Shown: positions 32,058 to 57,816 of the stretch, piece by piece
Numbering within the stretch: the stretch's first letter is position 1
Layout of the letters: each line of letters begins with the position of its first letter
Position numbers and translations under genes: made by a program
Assembly: GCA_017961325.1 (NCBI GenBank)
Contig: JAGCXM010000015.1
Coordinates: forward strand, 9,408 to 73,407
Length of the DNA stretch: 64,000 bases
Source: a bacterium
Lineage (GTDB): Bacteria > UBP6 > UBA1177
Reading direction: 5' to 3'
The notes under the pieces: generated by a model
Told to the model about the DNA's origin: nothing
The model's input: the letters and a program-made list of their open reading frames with translations, nothing else
Databases searched by the model: none

Positions 32058-32117
32058 GAAAGGCCTTCCTTTCACAAACTACAAAATCAAGCTGAAAATG
32101 CTTTGAACAGATTGCAG

Positions 32118-32157
32118 ATTTTATACATTTTCGGAATCCGATTCCGAATTTGTATAA
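32118..32157. repeat. Repeat family C, copy 1 (40 nt; contains the palindrome TTCGGAATCCGATTCCGAA)
   Basis: Direct repeat of 33395-33434. The pair flanks the AAA ATPase gene. Confidence 0.8.
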
Positions 32158-32169
32158 AAATTTTGTCTT

Positions 32170-33384: not shown

Positions 33385-33394
33385 GCTTCCTCCG

Positions 33395-33434
33395 ATTTTA
33401 TACATTTTCGGAATCCAATTCCGAATTTTTATAA
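33395..33434. repeat. Repeat family C, copy 2
   Basis: ATTTTATACATTTTCGGAATCC(A/G)ATTCCGAATTT(T/G)TATAA, matching 32118-32157. Confidence 0.8.
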
Positions 33435-33546
33435 TATTCAGCTTTTGAGAAAATGACAGAAAAATTTTCTTTTCCAATCTAAACAGGGGAAAATCTGCTG
33501 ATTTTTGAGGCCTGAATACGAAAAATCCAACTTGGAAATTTTTAGT

Positions 33547-33630
33547 TTACCACGGAACCGAGATAAGTCCGGTAAAACCCATGAATGCAAGTGAGAAAAG
33601 ACCTGCTGTGACGAGCGCAGTCGCCTTGCC
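33547..33630 (-). pseudogene. Orphan duplicated 3' terminus of rnfA (encodes ...[27 protein letters not shown])
   Basis: About 80% nt identity to 38572-38660. Translation matches the last 27 aa of RnfA. No upstream ORF continues it. Confidence 0.8.
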
Positions 33631-33728
33631 TCAAAACCATTCCCCGGAAATCCCGTTGCAGGCTTTTCAATAGTTTAAGATCGGATTTTCGACAGATCAT
33701 GCCGTTTAAAGCGGTAAATTTTGTGATT
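33629..33728. repeat. Repeat family B, copy 1 (about 100 nt)
   Basis: About 90% identical to 34599-34699. A partial copy lies at 30289-30317. Confidence 0.85.
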
Positions 33729-33743
33729 TTTGAAAAAAAAGGA

Positions 33744-34037
33744 TCAGCTGTTTTGCGGAAGAAATTCTATTTTGAGTTTCATCCCCATCCCAATAGCCAG
33801 ACGCTGTAAAGTTCTAAGAGACGGATTTGCATTTCCTTTTTCAATTTTGCTGATGTCACCCTGCGCGATTCCGGTGCGCTCTGACAGTTCTTTTTGTGTA
33901 AGCCCTGACTGTTTGCGTGCATCAATGATTGCCTGAATCACGGCGTGTTCCGGCTGAAGCAGCTCGTATTCAGCCTTAAACTCGGGATTTTTCAGCTGTT
34001 CTTTGAGAAAATCATTAAACTTTTCGCCCATTTTCAT
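33744..34037 (-). CDS. higA: HigA-like XRE-family antitoxin
   Basis: HTH (LTQKELSERTGIAQGDISKIEKG). Overlaps and follows a HigB/Gp49-family toxin gene. Confidence 0.7.
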   Translation of the reverse strand: MKMGEKFNDFLKEQLKNPEFKAEYELLQPEHAVIQAIIDARKQSGLTQKELSERTGIAQGDISKIEKGNANPSLRTLQRLAIGMGMKLKIEFLPQNS

Positions 34038-34386
34038 CTCCGTTTCTACGCAAGTAATCGGCTCGGTATCTTTTTGCTTTTTCTATTTCTGCGACAGGAG
34101 TTTTCTGCGTTTTCTTGATAAAACCGTGAGTCAGCACGATCCGCCTGTCAACATAAAAGAAATAGAAAACACGCATTATATTTGTTTCGGCACGGGCTCT
34201 CAATTCAAAAATCCCGTCAGACAGATATTTCGAATAAGGCTCCCGTAAGTCGCAGCCGTTATCCTGCAGTATCGAAATCATGTCCGCCATTTTAGCCCTC
34301 ATTTTTACATCAAGTGACAAAAGAAATTCCTTTGCCGGCTGGCTGCCGTTCTCTTTTTCATAAAACTCGACTTCAAAACTTGTCAC
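34015..34386 (-). CDS. higB: HigB/RelE-superfamily toxin (phage Gp49-like, PF05973-type)
   Basis: 123 aa. Sequence pattern ...FELRARAETNIMRVFYFFYVDRRIVLTHGFIKKTQKTP of the Gp49/HigB family. Toxin-first order with an overlapping HTH antitoxin. Confidence 0.65.
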   Translation of the reverse strand: MTSFEVEFYEKENGSQPAKEFLLSLDVKMRAKMADMISILQDNGCDLREPYSKYLSDGIFELRARAETNIMRVFYFFYVDRRIVLTHGFIKKTQKTPVAEIEKAKRYRADYLRRNGDENGRKV

Positions 34387-34598
34387 AGAACCACTCCAAA
34401 AACTGTTTTATAGGATTTATCCTATTTTGTCAACATTTTTTACTTCAAAATCTCAATTTAATCTCAACAAAGAACAATTAAGATGCATTATTTAAATAAT
34501 CAGAATTTAAAATCAAGTTTTCGATTGTAGCAAGTAGAAAAGTTTAACTTTGCGGCAAACATGAATTTTCGTGAAGTGCAAAAAAGATGCTTTTATCG

Positions 34599-34699
34599 CC
34601 TCAAAACCATTCCCCGGAAATCCCGTTGCAAGCTTTTCCGAGAGTTTAAGATCGGATTTTCGACAAATCATGCCGCTTAAAGCGGTAAGTTTTGTGATT
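34599..34699. repeat. Repeat family B, copy 2
   Basis: CCTCAAAACCATTCCCCGGAAATCCCGTTGCA...CATGCCGCTTAAAGCGGTAAGTTTTGTGATT, matching 33629-33728. Confidence 0.85.
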
Positions 34700-34733
34700 C
34701 TGTGGAAATTTGACGGGTTAAACGACTTTTTGC

Positions 34734-35870
34734 TTACTTTTCTTTAGGCGGATTATCTTTCAAAAATAAAAGACCTTTTGCATCAAGCCTGTCGTCATTG
34801 TCAAACGGAATCCCTGCTTCTTTCTTTTTACGCAGAAGTTCTTGCGTGTAATACGCAAGTACAGATATTTGAATTCTGAAAAGCTCGCACATCGTTTTTT
34901 CACGTGTTGCAATATTGCCTGTATCACGGTAGTTGAAACCGTAACAAGTCGGGCAGATATTCAAAAGAGAACAATCAGCACAGAAAGGATCTGTATTGAC
35001 TTCTTGAGAAGAAAAATCCATCTTTTCTTGTAATTCAGCAGCCTTTTGAGTTCCCAAAACCATTGGAGTGAAAAGATGGCATGGGTAAGTTTTTCCGTCT
35101 ACATCGTAAGTTATCATATGGGTTCCGGTGCCGCACCATTTTTGCTTGGGATTACGCTCAATTGTCAAAAGTCCTATTCTCCTTGCAAACATAGGTATTG
35201 TTTCAACATTTGGATGCTCCAAATAATAATCTGCCAAAATCATTAACTGCTTACGAAATTCTTTTTTATCTTCTTCAGACCAAACTTGACCGTATCCACA
35301 GTTTGCTGAAAAATTCTTAGCCCCCTTTTCTATCAAATAAATGACTCCTGAAGCTAAATTTTTCAATGAGTCAGGAGATATAGTCATCTTAGCTCCTTGT
35401 TCAGGATAAGTTTTAAGGAAAAAATCCAAATCGACTTTACTAGCACAATTTGTTCTGTTCATATCCTGCGATTCCTCAGTTCCATCGTAGCTTATACCAA
35501 CAACAAAACGCTCTTTATGCTTAACTAGCCATTGTTTGATTTCATCAGTAATAAGTGTTCCGTTAGTAGTCGTGAAAAAGATATACGGAACCTCCCATTT
35601 CTGCGACCAAGTCCACTCCATAATCTCTTTCATCAAATCGAACTTTACAAATGGTTCACCGCCCATGAAATCGAACTCAATTTCATCAAAATCCGGCGAG
35701 TTTTTAACAAACTCAAACTCTTTTGTGATAATTTCTTTAGCCAATTCAAGAAGCATATAATGTTCATCTTTATATTTTTCGTAACAATAAACACAATTCA
35801 AATTACAGGAATGAGTTATAACCAAAGTACAACTCCTATGCCTTGACGAACTATTTTTATTTGAACTCAT
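34734..35870 (-). CDS. Radical SAM enzyme with C-terminal SPASM domain (RiPP peptide-modifying maturase candidate)
   Basis: CNLNCVYC radical-SAM motif near the N-terminus. C-terminal Cys clusters WCGTG...C...CADCSLLNICPTCYGFNY typical of the SPASM/twitch auxiliary Fe-S domain. Confidence 0.75.
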   Translation of the reverse strand: MSSNKNSSSRHRSCTLVITHSCNLNCVYCYEKYKDEHYMLLELAKEIITKEFEFVKNSPDFDEIEFDFMGGEPFVKFDLMKEIMEWTWSQKWEVPYIFFTTTNGTLITDEIKQWLVKHKERFVVGISYDGTEESQDMNRTNCASKVDLDFFLKTYPEQGAKMTISPDSLKNLASGVIYLIEKGAKNFSANCGYGQVWSEEDKKEFRKQLMILADYYLEHPNVETIPMFARRIGLLTIERNPKQKWCGTGTHMITYDVDGKTYPCHLFTPMVLGTQKAAELQEKMDFSSQEVNTDPFCADCSLLNICPTCYGFNYRDTGNIATREKTMCELFRIQISVLAYYTQELLRKKKEAGIPFDNDDRLDAKGLLFLKDNPPKEK

Positions 35871-35943
35871 TTACTAACCTCTGAATTTTTACAAAAAGAG
35901 AGAGCCAAAGGTCTCTCAGAAAAAAGTGATTAAACAAACAAAA

Positions 35944-36138
35944 CTAACTCGGATGATTTAAATCCCAAGTATTCGAAAACCTGCAAGAATCTAAACATTC
36001 TCCTTGGCAAGTTCCTGCACAACCACCATAACAATCATCGCAAGCATAGGATTGCTGGTTCCCAACAGATTCATAAGATACCGAACCAGATGAAACAACT
36101 GAGTTCAGCAACTCGACATCGTAATTTACATTACTCAT
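35944..36138 (-). CDS. 64-aa precursor peptide with a six-Cys core (CDDCYGGCAGTCQGECLDSC), ranthipeptide/SCIFF-like
   Basis: Start set at the ATG preceded by a GGAGGG RBS. Leader-like N-terminal half, then a Cx2Cx3Cx3Cx3Cx3C core. Lies 73 nt upstream of the rSAM/SPASM gene on the same strand, with a hairpin in between. Confidence 0.6.
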   Translation of the reverse strand: MSNVNYDVELLNSVVSSGSVSYESVGNQQSYACDDCYGGCAGTCQGECLDSCRFSNTWDLNHPS

Positions 36139-36313
36139 CTTTCCCTCCATGAAAAAAAATTAATAAAACAAAAAAACGGTCTTTTGACCAAGATTACAAA
36201 ACAACAGTATTTCAAAAATTTTCAATTGTCAAATTTATCAATGCTTTTGTATTTTGCAAATACTTTGATATTGCTTTAGTTTACTTTGGTTGAACGAGCT
36301 AAGAGGTGAAATC

Positions 36314-36589
36314 ATGTTCGGAGACAGAGTAAAGCAGGTGCGTGAAGCTCATAATTACAGCCAAGTGCAGCTTGCGGCCATACTTCATGTCTCAAGACAG
36401 ACAGTCTCAAACTGGGAAAACAACAACATAATGCCGTCAATCGAAATGCTCATCAAACTTGCCGACCTGTTCGGTGTTTCAACTGATTTTCTGCTGGAGC
36501 GCGACAACCGCCGCTCTTTGGATATCACCGGTCTGACAGAGATCCAGTGCGCTCACCTTAATCTTATAATTCAGGATATTTTGCAGTAA
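36314..36589 (+). CDS. XRE-family HTH regulator, divergent from the RiPP pair
   Basis: QVQLAAILHVSRQTVSNWENNN HTH motif. Start at the ATG with an AGAGGTGA RBS. Confidence 0.7.
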   Translation: MFGDRVKQVREAHNYSQVQLAAILHVSRQTVSNWENNNIMPSIEMLIKLADLFGVSTDFLLERDNRRSLDITGLTEIQCAHLNLIIQDILQ

Positions 36590-36818
36590 ATTCAGTGACT
36601 TAATCCCGTGACATTCTAATAAGAATTGGGAGGCTGTCGCAAATTGCAACAAACTGCAAGCATACAGAGGCTGAGACTTTGACAAAATCGCTTGATATTA
36701 ACATTAGATCTTTATCAAGAAATAATTTAAAATACAACAATGAGGCATGAAATAAAACTTGATTTTTGGAGAAATTATTGTTTTGTATTTCGCGAAACTT
36801 TTCTTTGGAGTTTGAAAT

Positions 36819-37808
36819 ATGGAAAACGAAGTGATTTTATACACAGATGAAAACGGAAAAACAAATGTTTCTGTGCGTTTTGCCGATGAAGATGTATGGG
36901 TAACACAAGCTCAGCTTGCCGAGATTTACAACACGACACAGCAGAATATCAGCCTGCACATTGATAATATTTACAGAGATGATGAACTGCCGGAAACGGC
37001 AACTCACAAGGATTTCTTGTTAGTTCAAAAAGAAGGCACTCGCAATGTAAAGCGTAATATTTCACATTACAATCTCGATATCATTATTGCTCTCGGCTAT
37101 CGAGTTCAGTCGGATGTTGCAGTGCGCTTCCGCCGTTGGGCGACTCAAAGACTTCACGAGTATATTCAGAAAGGCTTTGTTATGGATGACGAGCGGCTCA
37201 AGCAGGGGCGGAACCGTTATTTTAGGGAACTTCTGCAGAGAATACGCGATATCCGTTCAAGCGAGCGCAATTTTTATCAGCAGGTTACTGATATTTATGC
37301 TACTGCGACAGATTACGATCCGCGCTCGAAAACAACGCTTCATTTTTTCGCAACAGTGCAGAATAAACTTCATTATGCTGTACATGAACATACAGCGGCG
37401 GAATTGATTTATGAGCGGGTTGACAGTGAAAGGCCTTTTGTCGGCATGACAAATTTTAAGGGGGATTATGTTACAAAAGATGATGTGAAAATAGCGAAAA
37501 ACTACCTTTCTGAAGTCGAATTGCAGCGTCTGAATCTTCTCGTTTCGGAATTCTTGGATTTTGCGGAATTTCAGGCACTTGAAGAAAAACCCATGAAAAT
37601 GCAGGATTGGATCAAAGCTCTTGACAATCAGATAATAGCACATCAGCGCAAAATTCTTGAGGGAAAAGGCTCTGTCAGCCACGATCAGGCAATGAGAAAA
37701 GCTGAAAAGGAATACGAACTTTTCCGTAAGAAACAGCTGGCAAATCTTAAAAGTGACTTCGATTTATTTTTGAAAGACGTAAAAAGTCTAGAGAAATCCG
37801 AGAAATAA
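36819..37808 (+). CDS. RhuM-family virulence-associated protein
   Basis: N-terminus ILYTDENGKTNVSVRFADEDVWVTQAQLAEIY and overall about 330 aa match the RhuM family (PF13310). Confidence 0.65.
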   Translation: MENEVILYTDENGKTNVSVRFADEDVWVTQAQLAEIYNTTQQNISLHIDNIYRDDELPETATHKDFLLVQKEGTRNVKRNISHYNLDIIIALGYRVQSDVAVRFRRWATQRLHEYIQKGFVMDDERLKQGRNRYFRELLQRIRDIRSSERNFYQQVTDIYATATDYDPRSKTTLHFFATVQNKLHYAVHEHTAAELIYERVDSERPFVGMTNFKGDYVTKDDVKIAKNYLSEVELQRLNLLVSEFLDFAEFQALEEKPMKMQDWIKALDNQIIAHQRKILEGKGSVSHDQAMRKAEKEYELFRKKQLANLKSDFDLFLKDVKSLEKSEK

Positions 37809-37952
37809 CCTGCCTCAACCAGTTATCAAGTCGGCCAACCCATGAATGCAGGTGCGTGAGGCACATAATTACAGTCAGGTGCGACTTGCAACTCGGCTCC
37901 ATGTTTCCAAACAGGCAGTCTCGAACTGGGAAAACAACAACATTATGCCGTC
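37803..37952. pseudogene. Junction remnant: a degenerate third copy of the rnfA 3' terminus (37803-37848) joined to a truncated duplicate of the XRE gene from 36334-36441 (37849-37952)
   Basis: ...AAGTCGGCCAACCCATGAATGCA matches the rnfA-end repeat. It is followed immediately by an approximately 85%-identical copy of the HTH gene, starting internally at ...VREAHNYSQV. Confidence 0.7.
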
Positions 37953-42958: not shown

Positions 42959-43034
42959 GGGTCGGTAGCTCAGATGGAAGAGCATCTGACTTTTAATCAG
43001 GGGGTCGCGGGTCCGAGTCCCGCCCGACCCACCA
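42959..43034 (+). tRNA. tRNA-Lys (anticodon TTT)
   Basis: Cloverleaf: acceptor GGGTCGG/CCGACCC, anticodon loop CTTTTAA, T-loop GGGTCCGAGTCCC, encoded CCA. Confidence 0.85.
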
Positions 43035-43055: not shown

Positions 43056-43130
43056 GACCTTTTCGTCTAGTGGTTAGGACATCGGCCTTTCACGCCGGTA
43101 ACGGGGGTTCGAGTCCCCCAAAGGTCGCCA
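43056..43130 (+). tRNA. tRNA-Glu (anticodon TTC)
   Basis: Acceptor GACCTTT/AAAGGTC, D-arm GTCTAGTGGTTAGGAC, anticodon loop CTTTCAC, T-arm GGGGGTTCGAGTCCCCC, encoded CCA, followed by a T-run. Confidence 0.85.
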
Positions 43131-43173: not shown

Positions 43174-43201
43174 TTGACACTCCGTTTTTTAAGCCTATAT
43201 T
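43174..43201 (+). promoter_or_regulatory. Sigma-70-type promoter upstream of the riboswitch
   Basis: TTGACA, 16 nt spacer, TATATT. Confidence 0.5.
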
Positions 43202-43207
43202 GGCGCG

Positions 43208-43370
43208 ATTTGTTTCTGCGGAAATCGGTGAAAATCCGATGCTGTCCCGCAACCGTGAAGCTTTGAGCGAAGCCGGATACACAGACTCAAATCGAGGTAA
43301 TGAGTACCCCGAGGAGGGAAAAATTGCGATTATCAAAGGTTTGCACAATTTTTCCATTTTATTCACTTCC
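43208..43370 (+). ncRNA. Cobalamin (B12) riboswitch in the 5' leader of the lipoprotein gene
   Basis: Core AATCGGTGAAAATCCGATGCTGTCCCGCAACCGTGAAGC matches the conserved cobalamin-riboswitch segment (compare B. subtilis GGUGCAAAUCCUGCGCUGUCCCGCAACUGUAAGC). Lies between a promoter and the RBS. Confidence 0.7.
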
Positions 43371-43391
43371 CGAAATTTCATGGAGGAGAAA

Positions 43392-45635
43392 ATGAAAAAA
43401 CCTTTATCTTTCCTGTTTATTGTTTTTGTACTTATCTTTGCGGTTTCCTGCGGAAGCGGCAAAAAAGACGGCAGCGAACCTACTGACACGGACAACGACA
43501 CTGCGGACACTGAAAATCCGGACGGTGACGATGCAAACTCAGGCGACACTCCGGATCCTGGTGATTCCGGAAACGATTCCGGAGATTCGGAAAACAACGA
43601 CGATGCCGATTCGGGCGATTCCGGAAATGATGACGACACTGATTCCGGCGACACGGAGGAACCTGCCGAGACTCACGAACTTATCGGGAAATATGCCGAC
43701 AACTGGGGCGGAAGCCACATCATTTCCAATACCGCATGGTTTCAGCCATCTTCATACGGCGACACCCTTTTCCGCATCACGCAGTTCGACAATGAAAACG
43801 ATTTCATAATTGCGCAGAACGATGCCGAAAAATCATGGTTCCCGGAAAAATGGAGCAGATTCGACTACGTTATTGACGGCGGAAAAATCTACCTCTGCCA
43901 GATCGCTTTCGACAAAGAAACAGAAGATGATGCCCTCGCCGCTACGGATGCCGACAGAACCGATCTTACAGACAAAGGCTGCAACGGTTCTCCGTGGAGC
44001 GAACTTACCGAAACCGTTGAAGAATCCATCGGCAAAGACGATGAAAGAATCGCAGCATGGGCAACAGGCTACGAAAATTACAAAGTCGGCGAAGGCGTTA
44101 CTGAAGAGTGGCAGACCCCCGAAAAAGCTCTCGGAAAGGCCGTGGGAGATTCTTACGACGTTGTAGTTCTGGGTGACGGCGGCAGCATAGTTCTCACTTT
44201 CGCAAAACCGATAACGGACGGAGACGGCGCTGATTTCGCAGTTTTTGAAAACAGCTTCAACGAATACTTCCTTGAACTCGGAACAGTCGAAGTAAGCAGC
44301 GACGGCGAACATTTCGCAGCTTTCGACAACTACTATCTTGGCACTGAAAAAATAGGCTCTACAGGCAGTCACGACGCGCGTCTTATCTGGGGATTCGCAG
44401 GAAAATTCAAACAGGGCGAAGGAACGATGTTCGACCTCGCCGAACTCGCGGACAAACCCGAAGTTGCTGACGGAACGGTCAATCTCAAAGCGATCACCCA
44501 CGTTAAAATTGCCGATGTCATCGGCGACGGATCGCAGAAGGATTCCATAGGTAACACGATTTATGATCCGTATCCTACGGGAGAAATAAGCGCCGGTTTC
44601 GACCTTGACGCGGTCGCAGTCATAAACGAAGTTAAAGAACCTCTTGAAATTTCAGGAAAATGGTATGCCTATCAGTTCGGACAGTACGACACGATTTCAA
44701 ACAAAGGCTGGAGTCAGCTCAACATGACTTACGGCGGCAATTACAACTACGAGGTTTTTTACAAAATAGTCAAATACGACAATGAAAACGATACCTTCAT
44801 CGCCTACAAGGAAGACACGAAATACAGCAAGGTAAATTATGCTTTGACAAAAGACGGCGGGAAGGAAATCCTTTACCTCTGTGAAATCGCATTCAACAAG
44901 GAAACGGCTGAAGATGCCGAAGCAGCTGACGATGCGGACAAAACCGATCTCAGCGGAAACACCTGCGGAGGTTTTTCATGGAATATATACATCCGTGCCG
45001 GAACAGAGAGTAATGATGCAAAATACGATCTGCATGCCGAAAGGGAAAAGGCCGCAAACGCGGATGACGACTGCATCGACGTCTGGGCAAGCGGATACGA
45101 TTCCTTCAAGCCCGGCTCAGACGCAGACACTGGCACGAACGATCCGAAAGCTGCTGAAGGAAAAGCGGACGGCAAATTCGTTTCGCTCGGAAAGGGCGGC
45201 AGCATCGTCGTAACTTTCACCGATCCGCTGCCAATTGACGGCGGTGAAACGGGCGAAGTCGGAACGGACTTCATAATTTTTGCAAACAGTGCTGACAGCC
45301 ACGCCCTTGCAAAAGTCGAAGTAAGCAGCGACGGTGAAAATTTCGTCGCATTCGACACGCACTTTCTCGGCATGAAAGCAGGCGGATTCGACGAAACGCA
45401 GATTTTCGGATTTGCAGGAAAATTCGGCAACGATAAAGGAACGAAATTCGATCTTCAGGATCTTTCACTCAAACCGGAAGTCAAAAACGGAAAAGTCGAT
45501 CTCTCGGCAGTCACGATCGTCAGAATCACCGATATTCCAGGAGACGGTTCAGAGCTCGACTCCCACGGAAATCCGATATTCTACCCCTATCCTGAAGGCG
45601 GATTCGAACTTGACGCAGCAGCTGCAGTCAAATAA
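43392..45635 (+). CDS. Lipoprotein with an acidic D/G/S-rich linker and two tandem homologous domains of about 330 aa each; function unknown, under B12-riboswitch control
   Basis: Lipobox FAVSC. Start at the ATG with a GGAGGAG RBS. Internal duplication (LCQIAFDKETEDDA.../LCEIAFNKETAEDA... and DFAVFENS...VEVSSDGEHF.../DFIIFANS...VEVSSDGENF...). Confidence 0.65.
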   Translation: MKKPLSFLFIVFVLIFAVSCGSGKKDGSEPTDTDNDTADTENPDGDDANSGDTPDPGDSGNDSGDSENNDDADSGDSGNDDDTDSGDTEEPAETHELIGKYADNWGGSHIISNTAWFQPSSYGDTLFRITQFDNENDFIIAQNDAEKSWFPEKWSRFDYVIDGGKIYLCQIAFDKETEDDALAATDADRTDLTDKGCNGSPWSELTETVEESIGKDDERIAAWATGYENYKVGEGVTEEWQTPEKALGKAVGDSYDVVVLGDGGSIVLTFAKPITDGDGADFAVFENSFNEYFLELGTVEVSSDGEHFAAFDNYYLGTEKIGSTGSHDARLIWGFAGKFKQGEGTMFDLAELADKPEVADGTVNLKAITHVKIADVIGDGSQKDSIGNTIYDPYPTGEISAGFDLDAVAVINEVKEPLEISGKWYAYQFGQYDTISNKGWSQLNMTYGGNYNYEVFYKIVKYDNENDTFIAYKEDTKYSKVNYALTKDGGKEILYLCEIAFNKETAEDAEAADDADKTDLSGNTCGGFSWNIYIRAGTESNDAKYDLHAEREKAANADDDCIDVWASGYDSFKPGSDADTGTNDPKAAEGKADGKFVSLGKGGSIVVTFTDPLPIDGGETGEVGTDFIIFANSADSHALAKVEVSSDGENFVAFDTHFLGMKAGGFDETQIFGFAGKFGNDKGTKFDLQDLSLKPEVKNGKVDLSAVTIVRITDIPGDGSELDSHGNPIFYPYPEGGFELDAAAAVK

Positions 45636-45677: not shown

Positions 45678-46787
45678 TTAAGATTTTCTCTTTTTATCAG
45701 TATAAGAATAAGCTGCAGCGCTTTTTTTGACGATAATCTTTCCGTTGACAAGATTCGAGAAAAAGCCGGCATTCACGATTTCCGTCAGTATCTTCACGCG
45801 GAGTTTTGCCGGAACGACCATATCTGAAATTTCTATCGTTTTTTTGCCGGCACCCTCTTTCTGCGGAAGAAACGAGATTTCGCGGCATGTTGAAATCGTG
45901 GCGCCTCCTGCTCCGGCCGACATCGCAGCATCGAGCATCTCCTTCGACTGGGTATCGTTGCATACGAGCATTATGTTTTCGAGATCAAGCATGAAATCCC
46001 TGCCCGCAAAATTTTTCGGATTGAAAGTCCTCCGTCTCCATTCCGTTCCGCCCTGCATCGAATCGATAACGCTGATTATCTGACCGATGCTGGCCGCGGC
46101 GCGGTTCGATCCGAAAAAGGTTTTAGTGTCTAAAGCCGCGAGATTTACAGGATATGAAAAAATGAAACCCATTCCCGGACGGTCGAGCCTTCCGCCGTCG
46201 ATCAGAAGATCCATCATTCCGTGAGCGTCATGGTTCGCGACGACGATGTTTATCGTCTCTTTTTCCGCCGGAATCGTAATTCTGATGAGTCCCATTCTGT
46301 CGCGTATCCCGCCTCCGATGCCGTAGGATATCGTCGGCACGCAGGAACCTTTGTCGATTGCGGTTTTTGCTATCCTCAAACCTTTTCCGCGCTGGGTTAT
46401 CGCGCAGATTCCCATATAATTTCCGCCGTTTGCATCAAATTCAAAATCAAGTCCGCCGAAATTTTCATTGTCTCCCCCGCCTTCGATCAGGACGGCAGGT
46501 TCTGAAAAAAGCGAGCCGCGCCCCTCCTGCAAAAGTTCGAGAGAGGAAACGATATTGTCAAAAACTTTTTTTTCGTCTTCCGCCGGGACATAGAAATGAA
46601 ATGTTTCGAGAATGTTTTCCGTCACCCCTTTTCTATTGAAAATCCAGTGCCTGTCAGTCGAAACGATCGAACTGCTCCGCTGAGTGATGATGCTGTTAAT
46701 CCCGCATTCCTTCAGGGCTTCAACCACTTTCTGCGACAACGATTTGTAAACGCTGCACGTGAATTTGGCTATTTTCGTAATTTTCAT
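45678..46787 (-). CDS. PII (GlnB)-like multi-domain protein associated with the DUF1538 transporter
   Basis: Repeated about 110-aa units with a GlnB-like GxxGGTI motif (SAGAGGATIS). Overlaps the end of the DUF1538 gene by 4 nt. Confidence 0.35.
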   Translation of the reverse strand: MKITKIAKFTCSVYKSLSQKVVEALKECGINSIITQRSSSIVSTDRHWIFNRKGVTENILETFHFYVPAEDEKKVFDNIVSSLELLQEGRGSLFSEPAVLIEGGGDNENFGGLDFEFDANGGNYMGICAITQRGKGLRIAKTAIDKGSCVPTISYGIGGGIRDRMGLIRITIPAEKETINIVVANHDAHGMMDLLIDGGRLDRPGMGFIFSYPVNLAALDTKTFFGSNRAAASIGQIISVIDSMQGGTEWRRRTFNPKNFAGRDFMLDLENIMLVCNDTQSKEMLDAAMSAGAGGATISTCREISFLPQKEGAGKKTIEISDMVVPAKLRVKILTEIVNAGFFSNLVNGKIIVKKSAAAYSYTDKKRKS

Positions 46788-48724
46788 TTTCTACCTCCGC
46801 CGTTCATCAGATTCTGCATCTTTTTCGCTTTTCTGCCGGCTCTTAGACCCATGACGAGAACGGTGAAAATCGGGCATGCGGAAGCCATGCTGAGGATTCC
46901 GAAACCTTCGACGACTCCCGGAAGTTTTTCGCCCAGACCGAGTCCCATTGCGAGAACTAGCGGAACGGTGACCGGCCCGGTCGTTACTCCCGCGCTGTCC
47001 CAGCCGATGTTGACGTACTGTTCATCGGAGAAGAATGTCATCACCAGCAGAACGGCATATGCCGGAACGAGCAGTTTGAAAATCTGAATGTCCCAGATTA
47101 TTTTGACCGCACCCAGCGCGATTCCGAAACCGACACCGGTCGCAACGGCGTAAATCAGCGTCGTTTTCTTGAAAGTTCCGACCGAAAGTTCCTCGACTTT
47201 CATGCCGAGCGCGTTCAGAGCGGGCTCGGCGAGCGTCGCGCCGAAACCCATTATGAATGCGAACAGAATGACCATCAGATACCCGCCGCTGCCGCCGTAT
47301 TCGCCGAAAATCGGACCGATTCTCGGAATGTAGCGGTAAATTCTGGCCGAATCGTCATAATTCTTTTCGACGAACGGAATCTGCGAATATTTGTTGTCGG
47401 CCTCTTTTTTGAAGAAAAATTCATTGACTTCGCCTTCCGGCGTGATCGATTTCTGGACGATGCTTCTGTCGAAGTTGCGCATCGTCTCCTGACTGTCGCT
47501 CATTTCAATCATGCTGAACGAAGCGGGAAGACGCGAACCGACCTGAGTTCCGATTTTTGTCAGACCGTATTCCATTCCGATTCCGAAAAGTCCCATTCCG
47601 AGCACCGAAATGAAGATTCCGAGAAGAATTTCGTCCTTTTTCGGCAGCTTTTCACGCAGAATCACGATGAAAACGAGAAGAATGAAAATCGTGAGCGGAA
47701 GAATCGCCTGCGCCGCCTCTAAAAACTTCGTTCCTGCCACATTGAAAAGGTTGACCGCCTCTTTTACCGCGTCGTGTGCCGGAAGCGCGTTTGCCGTAAA
47801 CTGTTCGTAAAGAGCCTGCAGCCTTTCCTCCGTTCCGACGATTGCCAAAGCGGCTTCCCTGTTCGCGGCGTCGAAAAACTCGCTCTGTGGCATCGGATCA
47901 GGCAGATTCAGATTCAGAAAAATTCCCAAAATGAAGACGGCAATCACCGGAAACGCACTTGCAAGGGTGACGACGCCGAAACCCATCGAATCATTTTCCT
48001 CATCGCCGGCTGTCCGGCACAATCCTATGCCGAGCGCAAGGACAAGCGGCACCGTGACGGGCCCGGTCGTGACCGCACCGCAGTCCCATGCAAGACCTGT
48101 GATATAAAGAATGTTTTTGTCAAAAACTCCCAGAACCGTGAAAATTATAAGCAGCGGAACCGTCGCAAAAATAAACGGTTTCAGCGAAAGCGACTTCATA
48201 AAACGCAGCATGCCGGCAACGACTGCGATTCCGACGCCGATTCCGACAGATGCAACGAGATATCCGGCATACTGGTTGAGCATCACGAAAAGAAGCGGTG
48301 CCTCCCACGGCTTCACGAAAGAGCCGTTCGCCTTGAGAATCGCGATCGAAGGTTCGGCGTAGGTCGCACCGAAACCGAGAATGAAACTGAATGCTGTTAT
48401 AGTAAAAATTCCGCTTTTGAGCGGCAGTTTGACACCCAGAATTTCGCCGAGCGGCATTATTCCGAGAAAAAGGCCTTCAAGAAAAAACGCGAGTCCGATG
48501 ACGACGAGACCGATTCCCGCCGCAATGGTTCCCGATTCGTGAAGAGGCATCCCGAGAATCACCGACTGAAACAGGATAAGGTAGATAACTATCGGCAGAA
48601 CGGAAGCCAGCTGCTCCTTGATTTTGTCTTTGCAGAACCGCTGAAGCATCATTACCGACTGTTTCAGCGGAACTCTGAGTTTCTGTTGATTGCGGGGAGG
48701 CATGATTTTCTCCGAAAAATTCAA
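46784..48724 (-). CDS. Membrane protein with tandem DUF1538 domains
   Basis: Two homologous polytopic halves (…GVTTGPVTVPLVLALGIGL… appears in both). The DUF1538/PII-like gene pairing is recurrent in other genomes. Confidence 0.45.
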   Translation of the reverse strand: MNFSEKIMPPRNQQKLRVPLKQSVMMLQRFCKDKIKEQLASVLPIVIYLILFQSVILGMPLHESGTIAAGIGLVVIGLAFFLEGLFLGIMPLGEILGVKLPLKSGIFTITAFSFILGFGATYAEPSIAILKANGSFVKPWEAPLLFVMLNQYAGYLVASVGIGVGIAVVAGMLRFMKSLSLKPFIFATVPLLIIFTVLGVFDKNILYITGLAWDCGAVTTGPVTVPLVLALGIGLCRTAGDEENDSMGFGVVTLASAFPVIAVFILGIFLNLNLPDPMPQSEFFDAANREAALAIVGTEERLQALYEQFTANALPAHDAVKEAVNLFNVAGTKFLEAAQAILPLTIFILLVFIVILREKLPKKDEILLGIFISVLGMGLFGIGMEYGLTKIGTQVGSRLPASFSMIEMSDSQETMRNFDRSIVQKSITPEGEVNEFFFKKEADNKYSQIPFVEKNYDDSARIYRYIPRIGPIFGEYGGSGGYLMVILFAFIMGFGATLAEPALNALGMKVEELSVGTFKKTTLIYAVATGVGFGIALGAVKIIWDIQIFKLLVPAYAVLLVMTFFSDEQYVNIGWDSAGVTTGPVTVPLVLAMGLGLGEKLPGVVEGFGILSMASACPIFTVLVMGLRAGRKAKKMQNLMNGGGRK

Positions 48725-48776
48725 AAAAACGAGGCATTATAAGTTTGTGTTGAGAAAGTTCAAAAAAACTTTTTTG

Positions 48777-51700
48777 CTAAGATGACTCTTCAGATTTCCT
48801 CTGATCTTCTTTAAATTGATCTACAAAAAATGTTAACAAGTTTTTGCCAAAATTGCTTCTCATAGAGTGGTTCTTACGCCAGATATTCATTTCATCATCA
48901 AAATTTTTGCTCATTCGATCCCTATAAATAAAGATTTGAAGAAGTGGTTCGATTGCATTAATGTCATGTGCGATTTTAGAATTGCAGGTTGTTAATCCGT
49001 TTAATTCCAGAACTAGAGCGTTAATAAAATTAAAATTACAGAAGTGCGGAAGCCTATTAAGTTCTTGTAAATCTTCGAGTTTAATTTTTTTGTTTTTTGG
49101 CAAATAATCTTGTACAAGAAGCATAAGTATTATCCTTGATAAATCGTAATTTTCTACTGGTTGAAATCTACAGAACTTATTATTTTCTGGAAGAAAAAAT
49201 AATGCTAATTGACAGCATCCCCATGTGTGATCAGTAAAAACAGTATGTTTTCCAAAATATTTTTCAATCCATTTAGACCGCATATTCTCCTTTAGTTCAT
49301 ATATATTTTTCAATTTTTCAATATAAATATTTTTATTTAATAAATTTTTAATATCACACACACGGTTGCGAACATTAGATTCAAGATAATCGTCCAATTC
49401 AAGTATCTTTTCTATCAACTCTTTAGCTTCTTCTATTTCTTCATCTTTTGAAATTTCTGGAAGACAAAATAGCTTGTAAAAAATTAAATTCAGAACGGTA
49501 ATTACGTTAATGTTTAATAATTTTTCTTCGCTTGAAAATCTAAATCGGCTTGAATATGTTGTTTTTGATTTTGCCTTGCTCTGTATATTGTATATACTAT
49601 CTTTCAAGAATTTATAAAGCGGGTCAATATTCTCGGATGTACACATTGTATTATCCAGCATAAATTCTTCATCGAACTTGTAACCATCTGTTGTGAAGTA
49701 TCGTATGTGAAAATTTCTATTGATTTGGTTTAGATAGCCATTGTAAATAAGCTCTTTATAAAAGTCATTCTCATAACTAACATCACCTAAAAATATTAAA
49801 CTTATCCCAATTGTTCGAATATAAACTCCAATGTCATAATCTAATTTTTGTTCCATATACATTTCTTTTCTTAAATAACCTATATATTCTCTATATTCTC
49901 TTTTTAAAATATTTATGACGTCTTCATCTTCCTCCCGCTTTTTGACGCGTCCAAGCATAAATGCAAGCTGAATCTTTTGATGTAACGTTATTCTATTATC
50001 TAATTCCTTATTCATAGTATCTTTGATTGATGTCACAGCTTTTTCAATACATTCTTTTTCTTGTTCATGTTGTAAATTATTAATTAAATAATCTTTAAAT
50101 TTATCTATTTTTTCATGCAACGTTTTCTTCTCATCCTTTCTTTTTATCATAAGGCTTTTAATGTTGTTTATGATAGTTCCAACAATTGATTCTCCGCGTT
50201 CATCTTTCAAATTATTCATCAAATAGACCGCGAACTTATTTATACCGACTGTAAGAATACAATTGAATAATTTTAATTTTTTTATTAAATCACCAGATTT
50301 ATTTTCTTGAAGAATAGAAATATAATAATAAGCAAGAAAATAATTTGTTATTGATTCTGACTTAAATAAACAATGAGATTTTACATATTCATCCACCTCA
50401 CTTTTTTCGCTGGATGTGCTATCTGCTAACAATGTCTTCGCTATATATTCAGCAGCACGACCAAGATTGTTAAGTGTTTTAGTGTAGTAATCATTAAATA
50501 TTTTGCCAACATTATAGCCCCAAAAATTAGACCTGTCTTGTTCGCAATCATAATATCTTTCAATAAAAAACAAGATAATTCTAAAGTCAACATATTGTCT
50601 TCCGAGCTCTTTTATCTTGTTACACAAGTTTTCTTTTAAATCATCTTGAAGTTCTATTTTTTTAAATGAGCCATAGTAATTCAATGTCAGATTAACAAAT
50701 TCCGCATTATCAATTTTTACAGGGTGAAAATAAATAATTTTTTCAGCTTTTATTTCACCTTGTTTATTATTTAATTTTGGATAAAGTTTTTGATCTAATT
50801 TGCCAATTGAATATACAATACTGAGTTTTGGAACGGTGCAGATTTTATTAATCCATGTACGTATTTCTGTTTCTAATTTGTCATTTACCATAAATAATGT
50901 TAGCCCATCAATAAGTAGGATTGTTTTTTTATTGTTATCAGACATTAGCCTACCCTCTATTTTTTCAAGATATTGTCTTAAATCAGTAAGAGTATCTTCT
51001 GTTTTCCATCTATTACCCTGATCATCCAAATCATAATTAGTAGAAATTAGGAATGGTTGTGTATTGTCCTTTTTTGAATTTAATAAACACTTATAGTAGA
51101 GCAAAGATAAAATAGTTGATTTCCCTGTTCCTGGTTCTCCTTCAATTGATAATGGATATTTGTTTTCAGATTTCGCAATATAATTATACATTTTATCCAA
51201 TTCTAATGCTGACCCGTCCCCATATGTTCTCAGAGCATCTTCGTTACATTGCATTGATATTGCAGCAATCAGTTTCTTTTGTAAATCTTCATTATCTTTT
51301 ACATCCTTAGCAAGATGATCTAAGAATTTCAAATCAAAGTCATTTGGTGTATATGTTTGATTCATTGTGGGTTTTGTTCCCATCTCTATCGTTAGCTTGT
51401 TTGAGGGTAGGTTCACATCATTAATATCAAGAATATCTCTTAATATGTCAATAATTTTATGATGTTTGTCTTGTTCATTATCTTTGTCTAGCTCATACCA
51501 AATTGGGTTAATCCCCATATTGACTAATCTTGAGAATCTTGCGTCTGCTTTTTTTGGATATGGCAATATTGCATAATGCCAATGATTGTATTTTTTTTTT
51601 GCCAATTCCTTCATTTTGTCTATTAGATAGTCATTATCGTTTAATCCACATCCCATAAACAGAATATTGGAATAATTCCAAAGACATTTCAGTGTCTTAT

Positions 51701-52259
51701 ATAAAGCTGATTCTTTCTTATATTTTTTATTAAAATCGTCTTTGGTTAGAATTATAGAATCATATTGATCATACGTACCATGAAGTTTTATCAATATTGG
51801 GTTTCTACTAGCAATTCTTTCAGTAATACTGTCCGTTTCTGTCATAGTACTTGGTGTAAAAATTTTGTTGTCAAAATTTATATTTGTCTCAATTATTGGA
51901 TCAAAATTTGTTGTAACAATTGTATGGATGTTTTTTTGTTTGAAATAATAAAGATAGTTGTCTTCATCGTTTCGTTTTTGTACTTTATTCGAATGAAACT
52001 CTGTAGAAACTAATTGTGAAAGGAGTCGATGTGGTAGCTTATCTGCAACCTCCCAGTATTTAAAACATTTAAGTAAATTACGGCATTCTTTATTTGTTTT
52101 TTCATCATCATTAAGCCTTATTGCTTTAAGCAGAAGATGTTTCCAATCTATAAGACCAAAACCAGCAGACATTCCAGATCCAATAAAGGGGATAAAATTT
52201 CCTTTTTTTAACTCACTAATATAAATTTTGTTGTTATCGAAAGACATTTTTTTCTCCAA
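48777..52259 (-). CDS. SIR2-like domain plus STAND P-loop NTPase plus C-terminal helical-repeat protein (Avs5/SIR2-STAND-type antiphage defence candidate)
   Basis: N-terminal SIR2_2 motifs: FIGSGMSAGFG..W, TTNFDPIIE, KLHGT, FMGCGLNDND. Central Walker A GEPGTGKST and Walker B ILLIDGL. About 600-aa C-terminal repeat region. The gene is conspicuously AT-rich relative to its flanks. Confidence 0.65.
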   Translation of the reverse strand: MEKKMSFDNNKIYISELKKGNFIPFIGSGMSAGFGLIDWKHLLLKAIRLNDDEKTNKECRNLLKCFKYWEVADKLPHRLLSQLVSTEFHSNKVQKRNDEDNYLYYFKQKNIHTIVTTNFDPIIETNINFDNKIFTPSTMTETDSITERIASRNPILIKLHGTYDQYDSIILTKDDFNKKYKKESALYKTLKCLWNYSNILFMGCGLNDNDYLIDKMKELAKKKYNHWHYAILPYPKKADARFSRLVNMGINPIWYELDKDNEQDKHHKIIDILRDILDINDVNLPSNKLTIEMGTKPTMNQTYTPNDFDLKFLDHLAKDVKDNEDLQKKLIAAISMQCNEDALRTYGDGSALELDKMYNYIAKSENKYPLSIEGEPGTGKSTILSLLYYKCLLNSKKDNTQPFLISTNYDLDDQGNRWKTEDTLTDLRQYLEKIEGRLMSDNNKKTILLIDGLTLFMVNDKLETEIRTWINKICTVPKLSIVYSIGKLDQKLYPKLNNKQGEIKAEKIIYFHPVKIDNAEFVNLTLNYYGSFKKIELQDDLKENLCNKIKELGRQYVDFRIILFFIERYYDCEQDRSNFWGYNVGKIFNDYYTKTLNNLGRAAEYIAKTLLADSTSSEKSEVDEYVKSHCLFKSESITNYFLAYYYISILQENKSGDLIKKLKLFNCILTVGINKFAVYLMNNLKDERGESIVGTIINNIKSLMIKRKDEKKTLHEKIDKFKDYLINNLQHEQEKECIEKAVTSIKDTMNKELDNRITLHQKIQLAFMLGRVKKREEDEDVINILKREYREYIGYLRKEMYMEQKLDYDIGVYIRTIGISLIFLGDVSYENDFYKELIYNGYLNQINRNFHIRYFTTDGYKFDEEFMLDNTMCTSENIDPLYKFLKDSIYNIQSKAKSKTTYSSRFRFSSEEKLLNINVITVLNLIFYKLFCLPEISKDEEIEEAKELIEKILELDDYLESNVRNRVCDIKNLLNKNIYIEKLKNIYELKENMRSKWIEKYFGKHTVFTDHTWGCCQLALFFLPENNKFCRFQPVENYDLSRIILMLLVQDYLPKNKKIKLEDLQELNRLPHFCNFNFINALVLELNGLTTCNSKIAHDINAIEPLLQIFIYRDRMSKNFDDEMNIWRKNHSMRSNFGKNLLTFFVDQFKEDQRKSEESS

Positions 52260-52450
52260 CTCAAGTTCGTCTCATCACAGAAAAACTCGTTTAACAAATA
52301 TTGCTATAATGGTCAAATTTTTGGCAGAAAAATCCTTCCCCCAAAAACGCTTTTTTATACCTTTTGAATACTCCTCAGCCTTTTATAAAAAACATATTGA
52401 TTTTTAATAAAATTGTATTAAAATACTTCGCTTTTTTTTGGGAGTTGCAG

Positions 52451-54196
52451 TTGGCATTTTCCACCGAAGTCAACAGGCTCGTTTCCGAGCGCATTTCTCT
52501 TGACAAAATAGTCTCGAAGTATGCCAAGCTGGAACCGACGGGAAAAGGTTTCAGATGCCTGTGCCCGTTCCACAAGGAAAAAACCCCTTCATTCCACATC
52601 ATAAGCGAGTCGAATTTTTATTACTGCTTCGGTTGCGGAGTTTCGGGAAATGCGATAACTTTCCTAATGAAAAAGGAGGGTTACACTTTTTCCGAAGCGG
52701 TTCGTTTTCTGGGTGAGGAGTTCAAAATCCCCGAACTTCTGGAAGATGTCCCGCAGTTTGACGGAGCGGCCGAACAGCTGCGGAAGGAAATTCTCGAAGC
52801 AAACAGAACAGCTGCAAAAATTTTCATGCAGAACCTTGAAGAAAACGGCGGAGCGCTTGAATATCTGAAAAAACGCGGCGTTTCCGATGAAATGAAAAAG
52901 CGTTTCGCACTCGGTTTTGCGGGCGACGGCGAAAGTTTCATCGCCAGACTCAGGGAAAACGGCGTGAGCATGAACACCGCGGCGCAGGCGGGACTCGTCA
53001 AAATCGACGAAAATTCAAGAATCCGTTCGTTTTTCTTCAACCGCATAATGTTTCCGATAATCAGCAGAAAGCAGGTCGTCGCATTCGGCGGCAGAATCAT
53101 GGACGGAAACGGCCCGAAATACCTCAATTCGCCCGACACACCGGTTTTCAACAAGCACAAACACCTTTTCGGCATAGATTTCATGCGGGAATCGCTCTCA
53201 GCGTTTCCGTACATCATCCTCTGCGAAGGGTACATGGACGTGATTGCGATGCACCAGCACGGCTTCGGTACCGCAGTCGCTGCACTTGGAACTGCCATAA
53301 ACGAAGAACACCTTGAAATTATTGATAAATTCAAAAAACCGCTCGTTGTTATGCTCGACGGTGACAGCGCCGGAAGAAACGCCGCGAAAAGAATCGCGAA
53401 ACTCACGGTTCCGGAAACGCTCGATCTGCGTGCAGCATTCATCGAAGAGGAGGGAGAAGATCCCGATTCGATGCTTAAAAAGGAGGGCGGCGAAGAAAAA
53501 ATCCGCGCTCTCGTTCAGAATTCGCAGCCTCTTTTTCAGGAACTTCTCGACGAACAGCTTGCAATATTCAATTCAACCGAAAACGTTGAGGACAAACTGA
53601 AGACCGAACGGCTGATACGCGATATTTTCGCAAAAATTCCTGCAGCGAAATCAGGCGCTTATGCAAATTACGTGCTGAAAAGGTCAAACGGCGAAATCAA
53701 GGTCTACAGATCGAAACTTTCAAAAGTCGCAATACTTACGAAAAAGGCTGAGACCGGCGAAGTCAGAGAGGATAATCCCTACGAAAGATTCAGCTTTGAA
53801 AACGTGAGAAAACTCGTTGTGATAGCACTTCTCCGCAACGAATTCATCCGCTCGCTCGAAACGATAAGGGACTACTTCGTCTACTGCGGATACGGCGCTC
53901 TCATGGATGAAATCATCGCGGCAGACGACGAAGGTGCCGGCATGGAAGAAATTCTGGAAAAAGTAGATCTCACCGGCGAAATTTCGGCGGAATTTAAAGG
54001 AAAGTCGGCAACTTACATAGAAAAATACTTCGAAAGGGAGATGGCCGGCGTGAAAATCGCGCAGAACGACATCCTCTACAAAACTCTGTGCAGCGACGAC
54101 AGCCCCGAAGCAAAAATAAAAATAGCGGAAATTATTAAAGAAAACAAGAATTTAGATAAAATACGACGAGACAATATAATTACAGGCAACTGCTGA
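52451..54196 (+). CDS. dnaG: DNA primase
   Basis: CHC2 zinc finger CLCPFHKEKTPSFHI...CFGCG. TOPRIM region ILCEGYMDVI...MLDGDSAG. Probable TTG start at 52451 with a GGGAG RBS; the ORF-track ATG at 52364 lies in an AT-rich, promoter-like leader. Confidence 0.8.
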   Translation: MAFSTEVNRLVSERISLDKIVSKYAKLEPTGKGFRCLCPFHKEKTPSFHIISESNFYYCFGCGVSGNAITFLMKKEGYTFSEAVRFLGEEFKIPELLEDVPQFDGAAEQLRKEILEANRTAAKIFMQNLEENGGALEYLKKRGVSDEMKKRFALGFAGDGESFIARLRENGVSMNTAAQAGLVKIDENSRIRSFFFNRIMFPIISRKQVVAFGGRIMDGNGPKYLNSPDTPVFNKHKHLFGIDFMRESLSAFPYIILCEGYMDVIAMHQHGFGTAVAALGTAINEEHLEIIDKFKKPLVVMLDGDSAGRNAAKRIAKLTVPETLDLRAAFIEEEGEDPDSMLKKEGGEEKIRALVQNSQPLFQELLDEQLAIFNSTENVEDKLKTERLIRDIFAKIPAAKSGAYANYVLKRSNGEIKVYRSKLSKVAILTKKAETGEVREDNPYERFSFENVRKLVVIALLRNEFIRSLETIRDYFVYCGYGALMDEIIAADDEGAGMEEILEKVDLTGEISAEFKGKSATYIEKYFEREMAGVKIAQNDILYKTLCSDDSPEAKIKIAEIIKENKNLDKIRRDNIITGNC

Positions 54197-54211
54197 AACA
54201 GGAGAGTAAAC

Positions 54212-57816
<3,605 letters not shown>

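Follow-up and report, generated by a model that had tools for sequence, protein, structure and literature searches.

The gene and its insertion site

We describe a gene for a large SIR2-headed protein in a 64,000-nucleotide stretch of a bacterial contig (JAGCXM010000015.1, lineage UBP6/UBA1177), hereafter the window, whose numbering is used throughout unless another locus is named. The gene is intact and occupies 48777..52247 on the minus strand, coding for 1156 amino acids (aa) plus a stop. A mechanical list of open reading frames (ORFs) gives 48777..52259 (minus strand), with a TTG start and a 1160-aa translation opening with LEKKM. The ATG at 52247, rather than the TTG at 52259, is most likely the real start, since the ribosome-binding sequence GGAG lies nine bases upstream of it and independent gene calls on four metagenome contigs yield the same 1156-aa product. 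The protein is identical to MBP5406185.1 (P0001 in our set of homologues), annotated as 'SIR2 family protein [bacterium]', and recurs unchanged in six contigs from several samples. Because the same gene in the same surroundings is found in at least four independent assemblies, a chimeric assembly is excluded.

Directly downstream, on the same strand, lies a DUF1538 gene (46784-48724; E = 2.5e-105), whereas dnaG, rpoD and guaB are on the plus strand, divergent from the SIR2 gene. The preliminary description of this DNA, made from the sequence by eye, had placed the gene upstream of a 'DUF1538/PII-like' operon and next to dnaG, rpoD and guaB. The position stands. The protein labelled 'PII-like', the 369-aa partner of DUF1538 encoded at 45678-46787 (minus strand), co-transcribed with it and kept beside it in relatives, has zero Pfam matches at E ≤ 1e-3. 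The same description had called the gene far richer in AT than its surroundings, and a windowed profile confirms this. The GC content of 48725-52363 is 0.288, compared with a mean of 0.455 (standard deviation 0.035, minimum 0.377) for the other 3.6-kb segments of the 64 kb. At third codon positions the GC content is 0.239 in the SIR2 gene and 0.54–0.64 in five flanking genes, including DUF1538, dnaG, rpoD and guaB.

Proteins 83–89% identical to the DnaG of the window occur in other metagenome assemblies, and in one such relative (87% identity; loci L186 and L187) the corresponding site is empty, the DUF1538 operon and dnaG being divergent and separated by approximately 157 base pairs (bp). In blastn, L186 6513-8904 corresponds to window 46381-48774, and L186 8950-10989 to window 52395-54436. 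Since the homology ends at 48774 and resumes at 52395, the insertion spans 48775..52394; these 3,620 bp stand where L186 has about 45 bp. The inserted island (GC 0.288) consists of the gene and 147 bp of accompanying upstream DNA. Its point of insertion is 12 bp upstream of the –35-like hexamer of a promoter-like site of the DUF1538 operon (TTGAAC-16-TATAAT, 48736..48763, minus strand; motif AAAGTTCAAAAAAAC), which is left intact. The promoter-like site of dnaG (TTGATT-16-TAAAAT, 52397..52424, plus strand), just beyond the other end of the insertion, where the homology with L186 has resumed, is intact as well, and both sites are conserved in L186. The window thereby presents a textbook single-gene accessory insertion exactly between two divergent housekeeping promoters.

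In a further relative (L184; DnaG 89% identical), a sulfatase gene and a prolipoprotein diacylglyceryl transferase (LGT) gene occupy the same spot (L184 6245-8937). Because L184 carries these two genes there and L186 nothing, the dnaG/DUF1538 intergenic region is a variable hotspot. No flanking direct or inverted repeats, target-site duplication or integrase were found at the insertion, the only repeats being chance AT-rich matches. The SIR2 gene has been acquired horizontally: the empty site in a close relative shows this directly, beyond the deviation in GC content, and the recent acquisition proposed from composition is thereby borne out.

The closest homologue, P0002 (42% identity), comes from cow-rumen assemblies (L006, GCA_002310995.1, DBYV01000013.1; and L188) and resides at another locus, beside valS. 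These assemblies also contain a DnaG 74% identical to that of the window. Provided that this DnaG and P0002 come from one genome, this would suggest that the window gene and P0002 were acquired independently within one bacterial lineage.

Domain architecture of the protein

The N-terminal domain (aa 9-275; 51423..52223, minus strand) is a SIR2 domain of the SIR2_2, ThsA-like type, identified by Pfam, PADLOC and alignment to BcThsA, and is a predicted nicotinamide adenine dinucleotide (NAD+) hydrolase (NADase). Pfam SIR2_2 (PF13289) matches at E = 2.9e-21, above its cut-off, and in PADLOC this domain is hit by the models of ThsA (1.4e-23) and LmuA (1.5e-22), as well as by Aga_SIR2 and PDC-S65; the ThsA models cover the SIR2 part alone (aa 8-235). 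Its nearest sequences in the PDB are ThsA, KomC and the sirtuin FAM118B. The catalytic asparagine, Asn114 (51906-51908, minus strand; assigned by alignment to BcThsA), lies within the motif TTNFD (aa 112-116), and in a HMMER alignment it coincides with the asparagine replaced by alanine in ThsA chain 8bto. The catalytic histidine, His156 (51780-51782, minus strand), lies within KLHG (aa 154-157) and aligns in the same manner with the histidine of the KomC motif KFHGDFD, which we take to be the H146 that chain 9xvc carries as H146N. As the family hardly varies at these two residues, the NADase site of the window protein looks intact. The motif FIGSGMS lies at aa 21-27. The NADase-type N-terminus of the preliminary description is thus upheld, and all motifs named there (FIGSGMS, TTNFD, KLHG, GEPGTGKST and ILLIDG) were found.

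The central part contains the core of a P-loop nucleoside triphosphatase (NTPase; aa ~349-510, 50718..51203, minus strand), with Walker A GEPGTGKS (51117-51140, minus strand; GEPGTGKST at aa 370-378) and Walker B ILLIDG (50904-50924, minus strand; aa 443-448), followed by a predicted lid and winged-helix-like helices up to approximately aa 680. In Pfam, the window protein matches NACHT (E = 4e-3), NPHP3_N and AAA, all below cut-off. Of the 'STAND/NACHT-like' label, the Walker motifs and a probable STAND-like fold are retained; the NACHT assignment stays below its threshold. Weak matches to NPHP3_N are seen in 18 of 19 close relatives and to nSTAND3 in 13 of 19 (best 1.6e-5). The full-length central-module homologue P0025 exceeds the Pfam cut-offs both for nSTAND3 (29.6 vs 27.2 bits) and for NPHP3_N.

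Across 155 central modules, Walker A is 96–98% conserved, and the Walker B consensus is hhhhDG-x-[D/N]-[E/D] (D 95%, G 96%, any residue, then D 94 / N 37 and E 61 / D 22), resembling the extended Walker B signature of NACHT domains, DGxDE. The predicted beta-4 strand ends in [VI][LIV][SGC]IG in the family. Taken together, the sequence features indicate an NTPase of the STAND/initiator AAA+ type, probably a distant relative of nSTAND3. A candidate sensor-2 arginine of the Cdc6 type, R556 in a 'DFR' that is invariant among the close relatives, was considered and rejected: in the wider family, only 67 of the 155 proteins have it.

The region at aa 511-972 (49332..50717, minus strand) comprises the lid/winged-helix-like part and then an alpha-helical domain, as judged from AlphaFold2 (AF2) secondary structure and from conservation across the 155 members. 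The helical domain is about 460 aa long, and this region of the window protein has no Pfam match. It harbours the most conserved residues of the family outside the P-loop, namely G766, R767 (100%), R811 (99%), S816, N843, R844, F846, H847 and Y850 (100%); by its conservation, the near-invariant polar cluster among them (R767, R811, S816, N843, R844, H847 and Y850) looks like a binding site or an interface rather than a fast-evolving sensor. Two insertions are present in the window protein and in 0 of 18 aligned homologues. One of approximately 48 aa (aa ~702-749; 50001..50144, minus strand; columns ~851-903 of alignment A1) is predicted to form helices at 704-723 and 728-749, and the other is located near aa 888-905.

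The C-terminal end (aa 975-1149; 48801..49325, minus strand) is a degenerate YfbR-like HD domain, recognised by Pfam HD_3, BLASTP, a motif census and the family profile. In the window protein HD_3 falls short of its cut-off (E = 4e-4; 20.7 vs 22.5 bits), and BLASTP aligns this segment with the HD domain of the relative P0004 at 6e-35. HD_3 is matched in 14 of 19 relatives (best 1.8e-23) and YfbR-like in 13 of 19; each of nine diverse members of the family exceeds the cut-off (PF13023 / PF12917), and in the PDB the family profile picks out HDDC2, YGL101W and 2cqz (1e-6 to 1e-7). The preliminary description had proposed a helical-repeat, sensor-like C-terminus of roughly 600 aa. A helical part does exist, about 460 aa in length, and is followed by this HD domain of ~180 aa, which had been missed; the repeat character was not confirmed, there being no matches to repeat families in Pfam and a conserved helical domain with HD_3 in their place.

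The full H...HD..E...D...D set of catalytic residues is kept in 136 of 147 HD segments of the family. In the window protein H1007 is retained, the HD pair has become Q1046-D1047, the catalytic glutamate P1050 and the last metal-binding aspartate N1097, and a 16-aa segment carrying 'GEAYTGD' is deleted. With four of the five scored catalytic positions lost, it is the most degenerate of the 147. The relatives P0002 and P0003 (42% and 41% identity) keep the HD pair and share the replacement of glutamate by proline and the same deletion; the aspartate is replaced by leucine. From these substitutions we predict that the HD domain is a pseudo-enzyme, a state common to the clade of the window protein. 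This state appears to be old and stable, since P0002 and P0003 are degenerate in the HD domain and yet full length. Degenerate HD domains were seen in 6 of 28 members of the SIR2 class and in 5 of 119 others (Fisher p = 0.007), a difference that is suggestive, given that the sequences are not phylogenetically independent.

A family with interchangeable N-terminal effectors

For the window protein, a word-indexed search recovered no more than about 19 full-length relatives, among them one with TIR instead of SIR2 and two without the HD domain. A profile of the central module was then searched against 1.84 billion representatives, with clusters defined at 50% identity. Matches at E ≤ 1e-3 comprised at least 500 representative clusters, of which 359 reached ≤ 1e-10 and 111 reached ≤ 1e-30; most come from gut and rumen metagenomes. 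Among the best 150 representatives, analysed with local hidden Markov models (HMMs), an HD domain directly follows the central module in nearly all, and SIR2 is present in about 31.

The N-termini were classified by clustering, followed by a scan of representatives. Classes with a Pfam match are SIR2 (31 representatives), PNP_UDP_1 (30), calcineurin-like Metallophos (26), two classes of TIR (6 and 6), HD-CE with CN_hydrolase (6), PRTase-CE (4) and SMEK_N (3); several more classes have no Pfam match, and the effector types number at least eight in total. PADLOC models for the effectors of CBASS, short-pAgo (Aga), bSEFIR, Lamassu and Thoeris are hit by the N-termini of the family. Coverage of the chassis is limited to one partial match, of PDC-S60 to aa 10-480 of P0025, marginal P-loop matches aside.

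The modules at the two ends may be absent. About ten members (776–855 aa) have no N-terminal effector, and the HD site is intact in 12 of 13 members with a short N-terminus. Ten other members have no HD domain, and all ten possess an N-terminal effector. By sequence, the protein belongs to a separate, unnamed family, the architecture of which would be a swappable N-terminal effector, an nSTAND3-related P-loop NTPase, a helical domain and a YfbR-like HD domain; we refer to the part other than the effector as the chassis. A description of an NTPase–helical–HD_3 chassis was not found in the searchable literature, a search that did not extend to the clade tables of a 2026 survey of STAND proteins. 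That survey distinguishes 589 STAND clades, 198 of them defence-associated (PMC13581612), and the chassis may be catalogued there without a name.

Two further observations concern the variability of the family. The N-termini of P0063, P0083 and P0146 (~150–240 aa; 7, 5 and 3 representatives, respectively) have no Pfam match and are candidate new effector domains; that of P0083, the one scanned in PADLOC, has no match there either. Besides, one and the same RadC...ParA locus harbours, depending on the sample, P0015 (1096 aa, with HD; L009 8001-11291) or P0017 (943 aa, no HD; L013 1326-4157), a case in nature of a C-terminal module exchanged or lost at a single site.

Genomic context of homologues

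None of the loci examined revealed a conserved neighbour gene of the family members, in accordance with the single-gene system originally proposed. The genes P0011 (L012 433-10739) and P0176 (P0018 type, a cluster of 471 member sequences; L179 1-13252 and L183) are each located downstream of three large serine recombinase genes, the former also with a Dcm methylase. Other contexts contain NikA/MobC (P0010), RadC and ParA (P0015, P0017), or RHS toxin, helix-turn-helix (HTH) and sigma-factor genes (P0025). In 11 of 11 loci examined, the GC content of the family gene is 5–21 points (0.05–0.21 as a fraction) below that of its flanks. The homologues behave as mobile accessory cargo, which fits a defence gene. 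At L179–L182, the recombinase-bearing element abuts variable capsule/glycosyltransferase loci.

Proposed function and alternative explanations

We consider it probable that this horizontally acquired gene constitutes by itself a conflict or anti-phage system, representing a modular chassis family in its SIR2-bearing version. Its role in defence, the depletion of NAD+, the oligomerisation and the kind of trigger are inferred, as follows. The protein would idle as an auto-inhibited monomer or dimer until the conserved C-terminal helical/HD region reads an infection cue; the NTP-bound NTPase domains would then oligomerise and gather the SIR2 domains, and these would hydrolyse NAD+, halting the infected cell and the phage with it (abortive infection). 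Since the catalytic residues of the HD domain are lost, SIR2 should be the only enzymatic output of the window copy, its HD fold being at most a binding or structural element. The effector modularity of the chassis is typical of defence proteins.

Because members without HD exist and the helical domain is universal, the helical domain is the likelier seat of the sensor, and the HD domain would then be a second output directed at nucleotides; the effector-less members with intact HD sites agree with this. The fixed C-terminal position of the HD domain and the retention of a dead fold in the clade of the window protein fit a ligand-binding or regulatory module as well, and we hold the two readings to be about equally probable. 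More specifically, we tentatively suggest that the chassis could be an unnamed STAND-type immune family, in which a YfbR-like 5'-deoxynucleotidase module serves either as an input sensing deoxynucleoside monophosphates (dNMPs), and with them phage-induced changes of the nucleotide pool instead of phage proteins, or as a second effector that depletes the pool. The window copy would then show the chassis after a takeover by SIR2, with HD reduced to a pseudo-enzyme.

Several observations weigh against the conflict or anti-phage reading. No defence genes flank the window gene, and no defence island is recognisable around it. In the viral contigs of IMG/VR, a pattern-based scan for the central module, of limited sensitivity, detected no relative; among PLSDB plasmids tblastn yielded matches to the SIR2 domain alone, and in phage genomes nothing. 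The window protein reaches no STAND threshold in Pfam, nSTAND3 (PF20720) being unmatched at E ≤ 1, and NCBIfam has no name for it. In PADLOC, the matches of seven other diverse members hardly extend past their N-terminal effectors, marginal P-loop matches aside. The Walker B of the window protein reads DGLTL, without the acidic pair, and no conserved arginine was found at positions 476-486 (sensor-1) in the 155 family members; because of these two features, the protein may depart from known STANDs in its hydrolysis of NTP or even in its regulation. Finally, the conserved polar cluster of the helical domain, unlike the fast-evolving sensors of many Avs proteins, hints that an internal interface or a small, conserved ligand, instead of a phage protein, is involved.

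Some of these observations would also suit a conflict module that is not primarily anti-phage, i.e., one acting in addiction, exclusion or competition between elements, or a nucleotide/NAD+ stress regulator that reads a metabolite such as dNMPs through its HD/helical region. The homologues travel as cargo beside serine recombinases, mobilisation genes or ParA, no known defence genes adjoin the gene in the window, and the near-invariant Arg, Asn, His and Tyr, along with an HD domain of the dNMP-nucleotidase type that is catalytically complete in most members, would more readily be explained by a conserved small molecule as ligand than by a phage protein that varies. We nonetheless regard this as unlikely, in view of the effectors of the family (SIR2, TIR, PNP, calcineurin-like, phosphoribosyltransferase (PRTase) and restriction endonuclease-like SMEK), which are the repertoire of validated anti-phage systems; metabolite sensing and an anti-phage role can, moreover, coexist. 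We consider it highly improbable that the window copy is without function, a passively carried relic in decay. Its HD site is indeed the most degenerate of the 147, the common acidic pair is missing from its Walker B and it bears two insertions that none of the 18 aligned homologues has, but an open frame of 1156 codons at 29% GC would be very unlikely without purifying selection. In addition, the catalytic residues of SIR2 and Walker A are intact, the identical protein is found in six contigs from several samples, P0002 and P0003 share the degenerate HD domain at full length, in line with an old and stable HD-dead state, and other members do without the HD domain entirely.

It is quite unlikely, in our opinion, that the protein is a diverged member of Avs5, with a C-terminal sensor that binds a phage protein, filament formation and NAD+ depletion. 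Such a relation would account for the shared SIR2_2 N-terminus and order of the NTPase, for the best match of the whole model in a Foldseek search of the PDB, which is chain 9nc9_D of an AVAST5 filament (E = 7e-9; DSR2 and SAMD9 come next), and for the weak nSTAND3 matches of the relatives, one of them above cut-off, as the NTPase of Avs5 has been assigned to nSTAND3 (PMC12931631, PMC11897194). The TM-scores to Avs5 are, however, low (0.18 and 0.26), and the family profiles miss the Avs5 chains of the PDB (9jap, 9nc9) at E ≤ 1 and at E ≤ 10, even through SIR2. No Avs model of PADLOC-DB 2.0.0, which we take to contain one for Avs5, matches the window protein; apart from SIR2, a single marginal P-loop match was obtained (mad8, aa 365-393, E = 0.0016). 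The ThsA/KomC-like character of the SIR2 domain, the missing 'TTR' arginine, a C-terminus that is helical with HD_3 rather than TPR/Sel1/PPR, and the fact that SIR2 is just one of at least eight effectors on the chassis point in the same direction.

If the anti-phage interpretation is true, a widespread chassis (at least 500 clusters) joins the STAND/Avs repertoire, and its usually catalytically complete HD domain of the dNMP-nucleotidase type suggests an immunity resembling that of nucleotide-binding leucine-rich repeat (NLR) proteins and linked to the sensing or depletion of nucleotide pools. Such a link is worth testing because EfAvs5 is reportedly triggered by a phage nucleotide kinase (PMC11897194). 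The effector-less, HD-less and HD-dead variants would constitute a natural dissection of the sensing and killing modules.

Other features of the window

A second accessory island of low GC content (0.35–0.42) is located at 30000-37900. It contains genes for a Lcl_C-domain ORF (31097-31492, minus strand), an XRE-type HTH protein (31501-31956, plus strand), an AAA_14+DUF4143 ATPase (32170-33477, minus strand), a protein of the Gp49 family (PF05973; 34015-34386, minus strand), a radical-SAM protein (34734-35870, minus strand) and a RhuM-family protein (36819-37808, plus strand). Further on lie two transfer RNA (tRNA) genes (42959-43031 and 43056-43127) and, after them, a cobalamin riboswitch (43220-43280; 32.7 bits vs a gathering score of 31.5), downstream of which a large protein of ~800 aa without Pfam match is encoded (43200-45635). 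The real start of the latter should be further downstream, since the mechanical ORF start at 43200 falls inside the riboswitch.

Comparison with known systems

The preliminary description had assigned to the protein the architecture of Avs5. The likeness is real in that a single gene codes for a protein of about 1,000 aa or more, with an N-terminal SIR2_2 NADase domain retaining the catalytic Asn and His (N141 in EfAvs5; N114 in the window protein), a central Walker A/B NTPase and the same domain order. The presumed logic, NAD+ depletion activated by oligomerisation, is also shared; oligomerisation-driven activation of SIR2 with depletion of NAD+ has been reported for EfAvs5, PaAvs5 and ThsA (PMC11897194, PMC12931631). 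The C-terminus of Avs5, in contrast, consists of TPR/Sel1/PPR repeats clustering with the SAMD9 sensor, in place of which we see the helical and YfbR-like HD domains. EfAvs5 has a sensor-1 arginine in a 'TT/SR' motif (TTR, R453; PMC11897194) that has no equivalent here, the SIR2 domain of the window protein is nearer to ThsA and KomC, and the effector is freely swapped on this chassis. The assignment to the Avs5 architecture was not supported as it stood, given the PADLOC, PDB-chain and C-terminal results. The wording 'diverged or undescribed member' of the family came close to the truth insofar as the protein is an Avs5-like relative; it is built on a different chassis, and Avs5 membership was not demonstrated. 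On the sequence comparisons made, architecture and logic appear Avs5-like, and membership in Avs5 is not demonstrable. Proteins P0020–P0022 (SIR2 with TPR/HEAT), considered as Avs5 controls for PADLOC, turned out to be unsuitable, being ThsA/Dsr1-like in SIR2 only.

The closest sequence relatives of the SIR2 domain are ThsA and KomC (E from 1e-12 to 1e-23), with identical catalytic motifs. ThsA of Thoeris, however, has a SLOG sensor and needs ThsB, and no ThsB-like gene is found near the window gene, which adjoins DUF1538 and dnaG; KomC is a small stand-alone SIR2 protein, and neither ThsA nor KomC has an NTPase or HD domain. The difference from Lamassu with LmuA-SIR2 is of the same kind: an SMC-like LmuB is adjacent there, and no LmuB-like neighbour was found here. 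At the other end of the protein, the 5'-(deoxy)nucleotidases YfbR, HDDC2 and YGL101W are homologous to the C-terminal domain of the family (HD_3 up to 1.8e-23; PDB 2cqz, 4dmb and 5yox at 1e-6 to 1e-7). In the family, an NTPase and an effector share the polypeptide with the HD domain, which in the window copy is predicted to be catalytically dead.

Two groups of large, SIR2-headed helical proteins resemble the whole model in fold. SAMD9/SAMD9L (9zjr, E = 7e-7), antiviral proteins of animals in which a SIR2-like domain is joined to a P-loop NTPase and TPR repeats, have additional SAM, AlbA and OB domains. DSR2 (E = 2.5e-8 or weaker) is devoid of an NTPase, whereas the window protein has a P-loop, and no Dsr model was matched in PADLOC. 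With TM-scores of about 0.2, the modelled resemblance to SAMD9 and DSR2 would be architectural and not a matter of membership. The concept of SIR2-STAND proteins is established, and many Avs families are known; what distinguishes the family described here is its conserved HD module of the nucleotidase type, the breadth of effector swapping and, in the window copy, a natural pseudo-enzyme.

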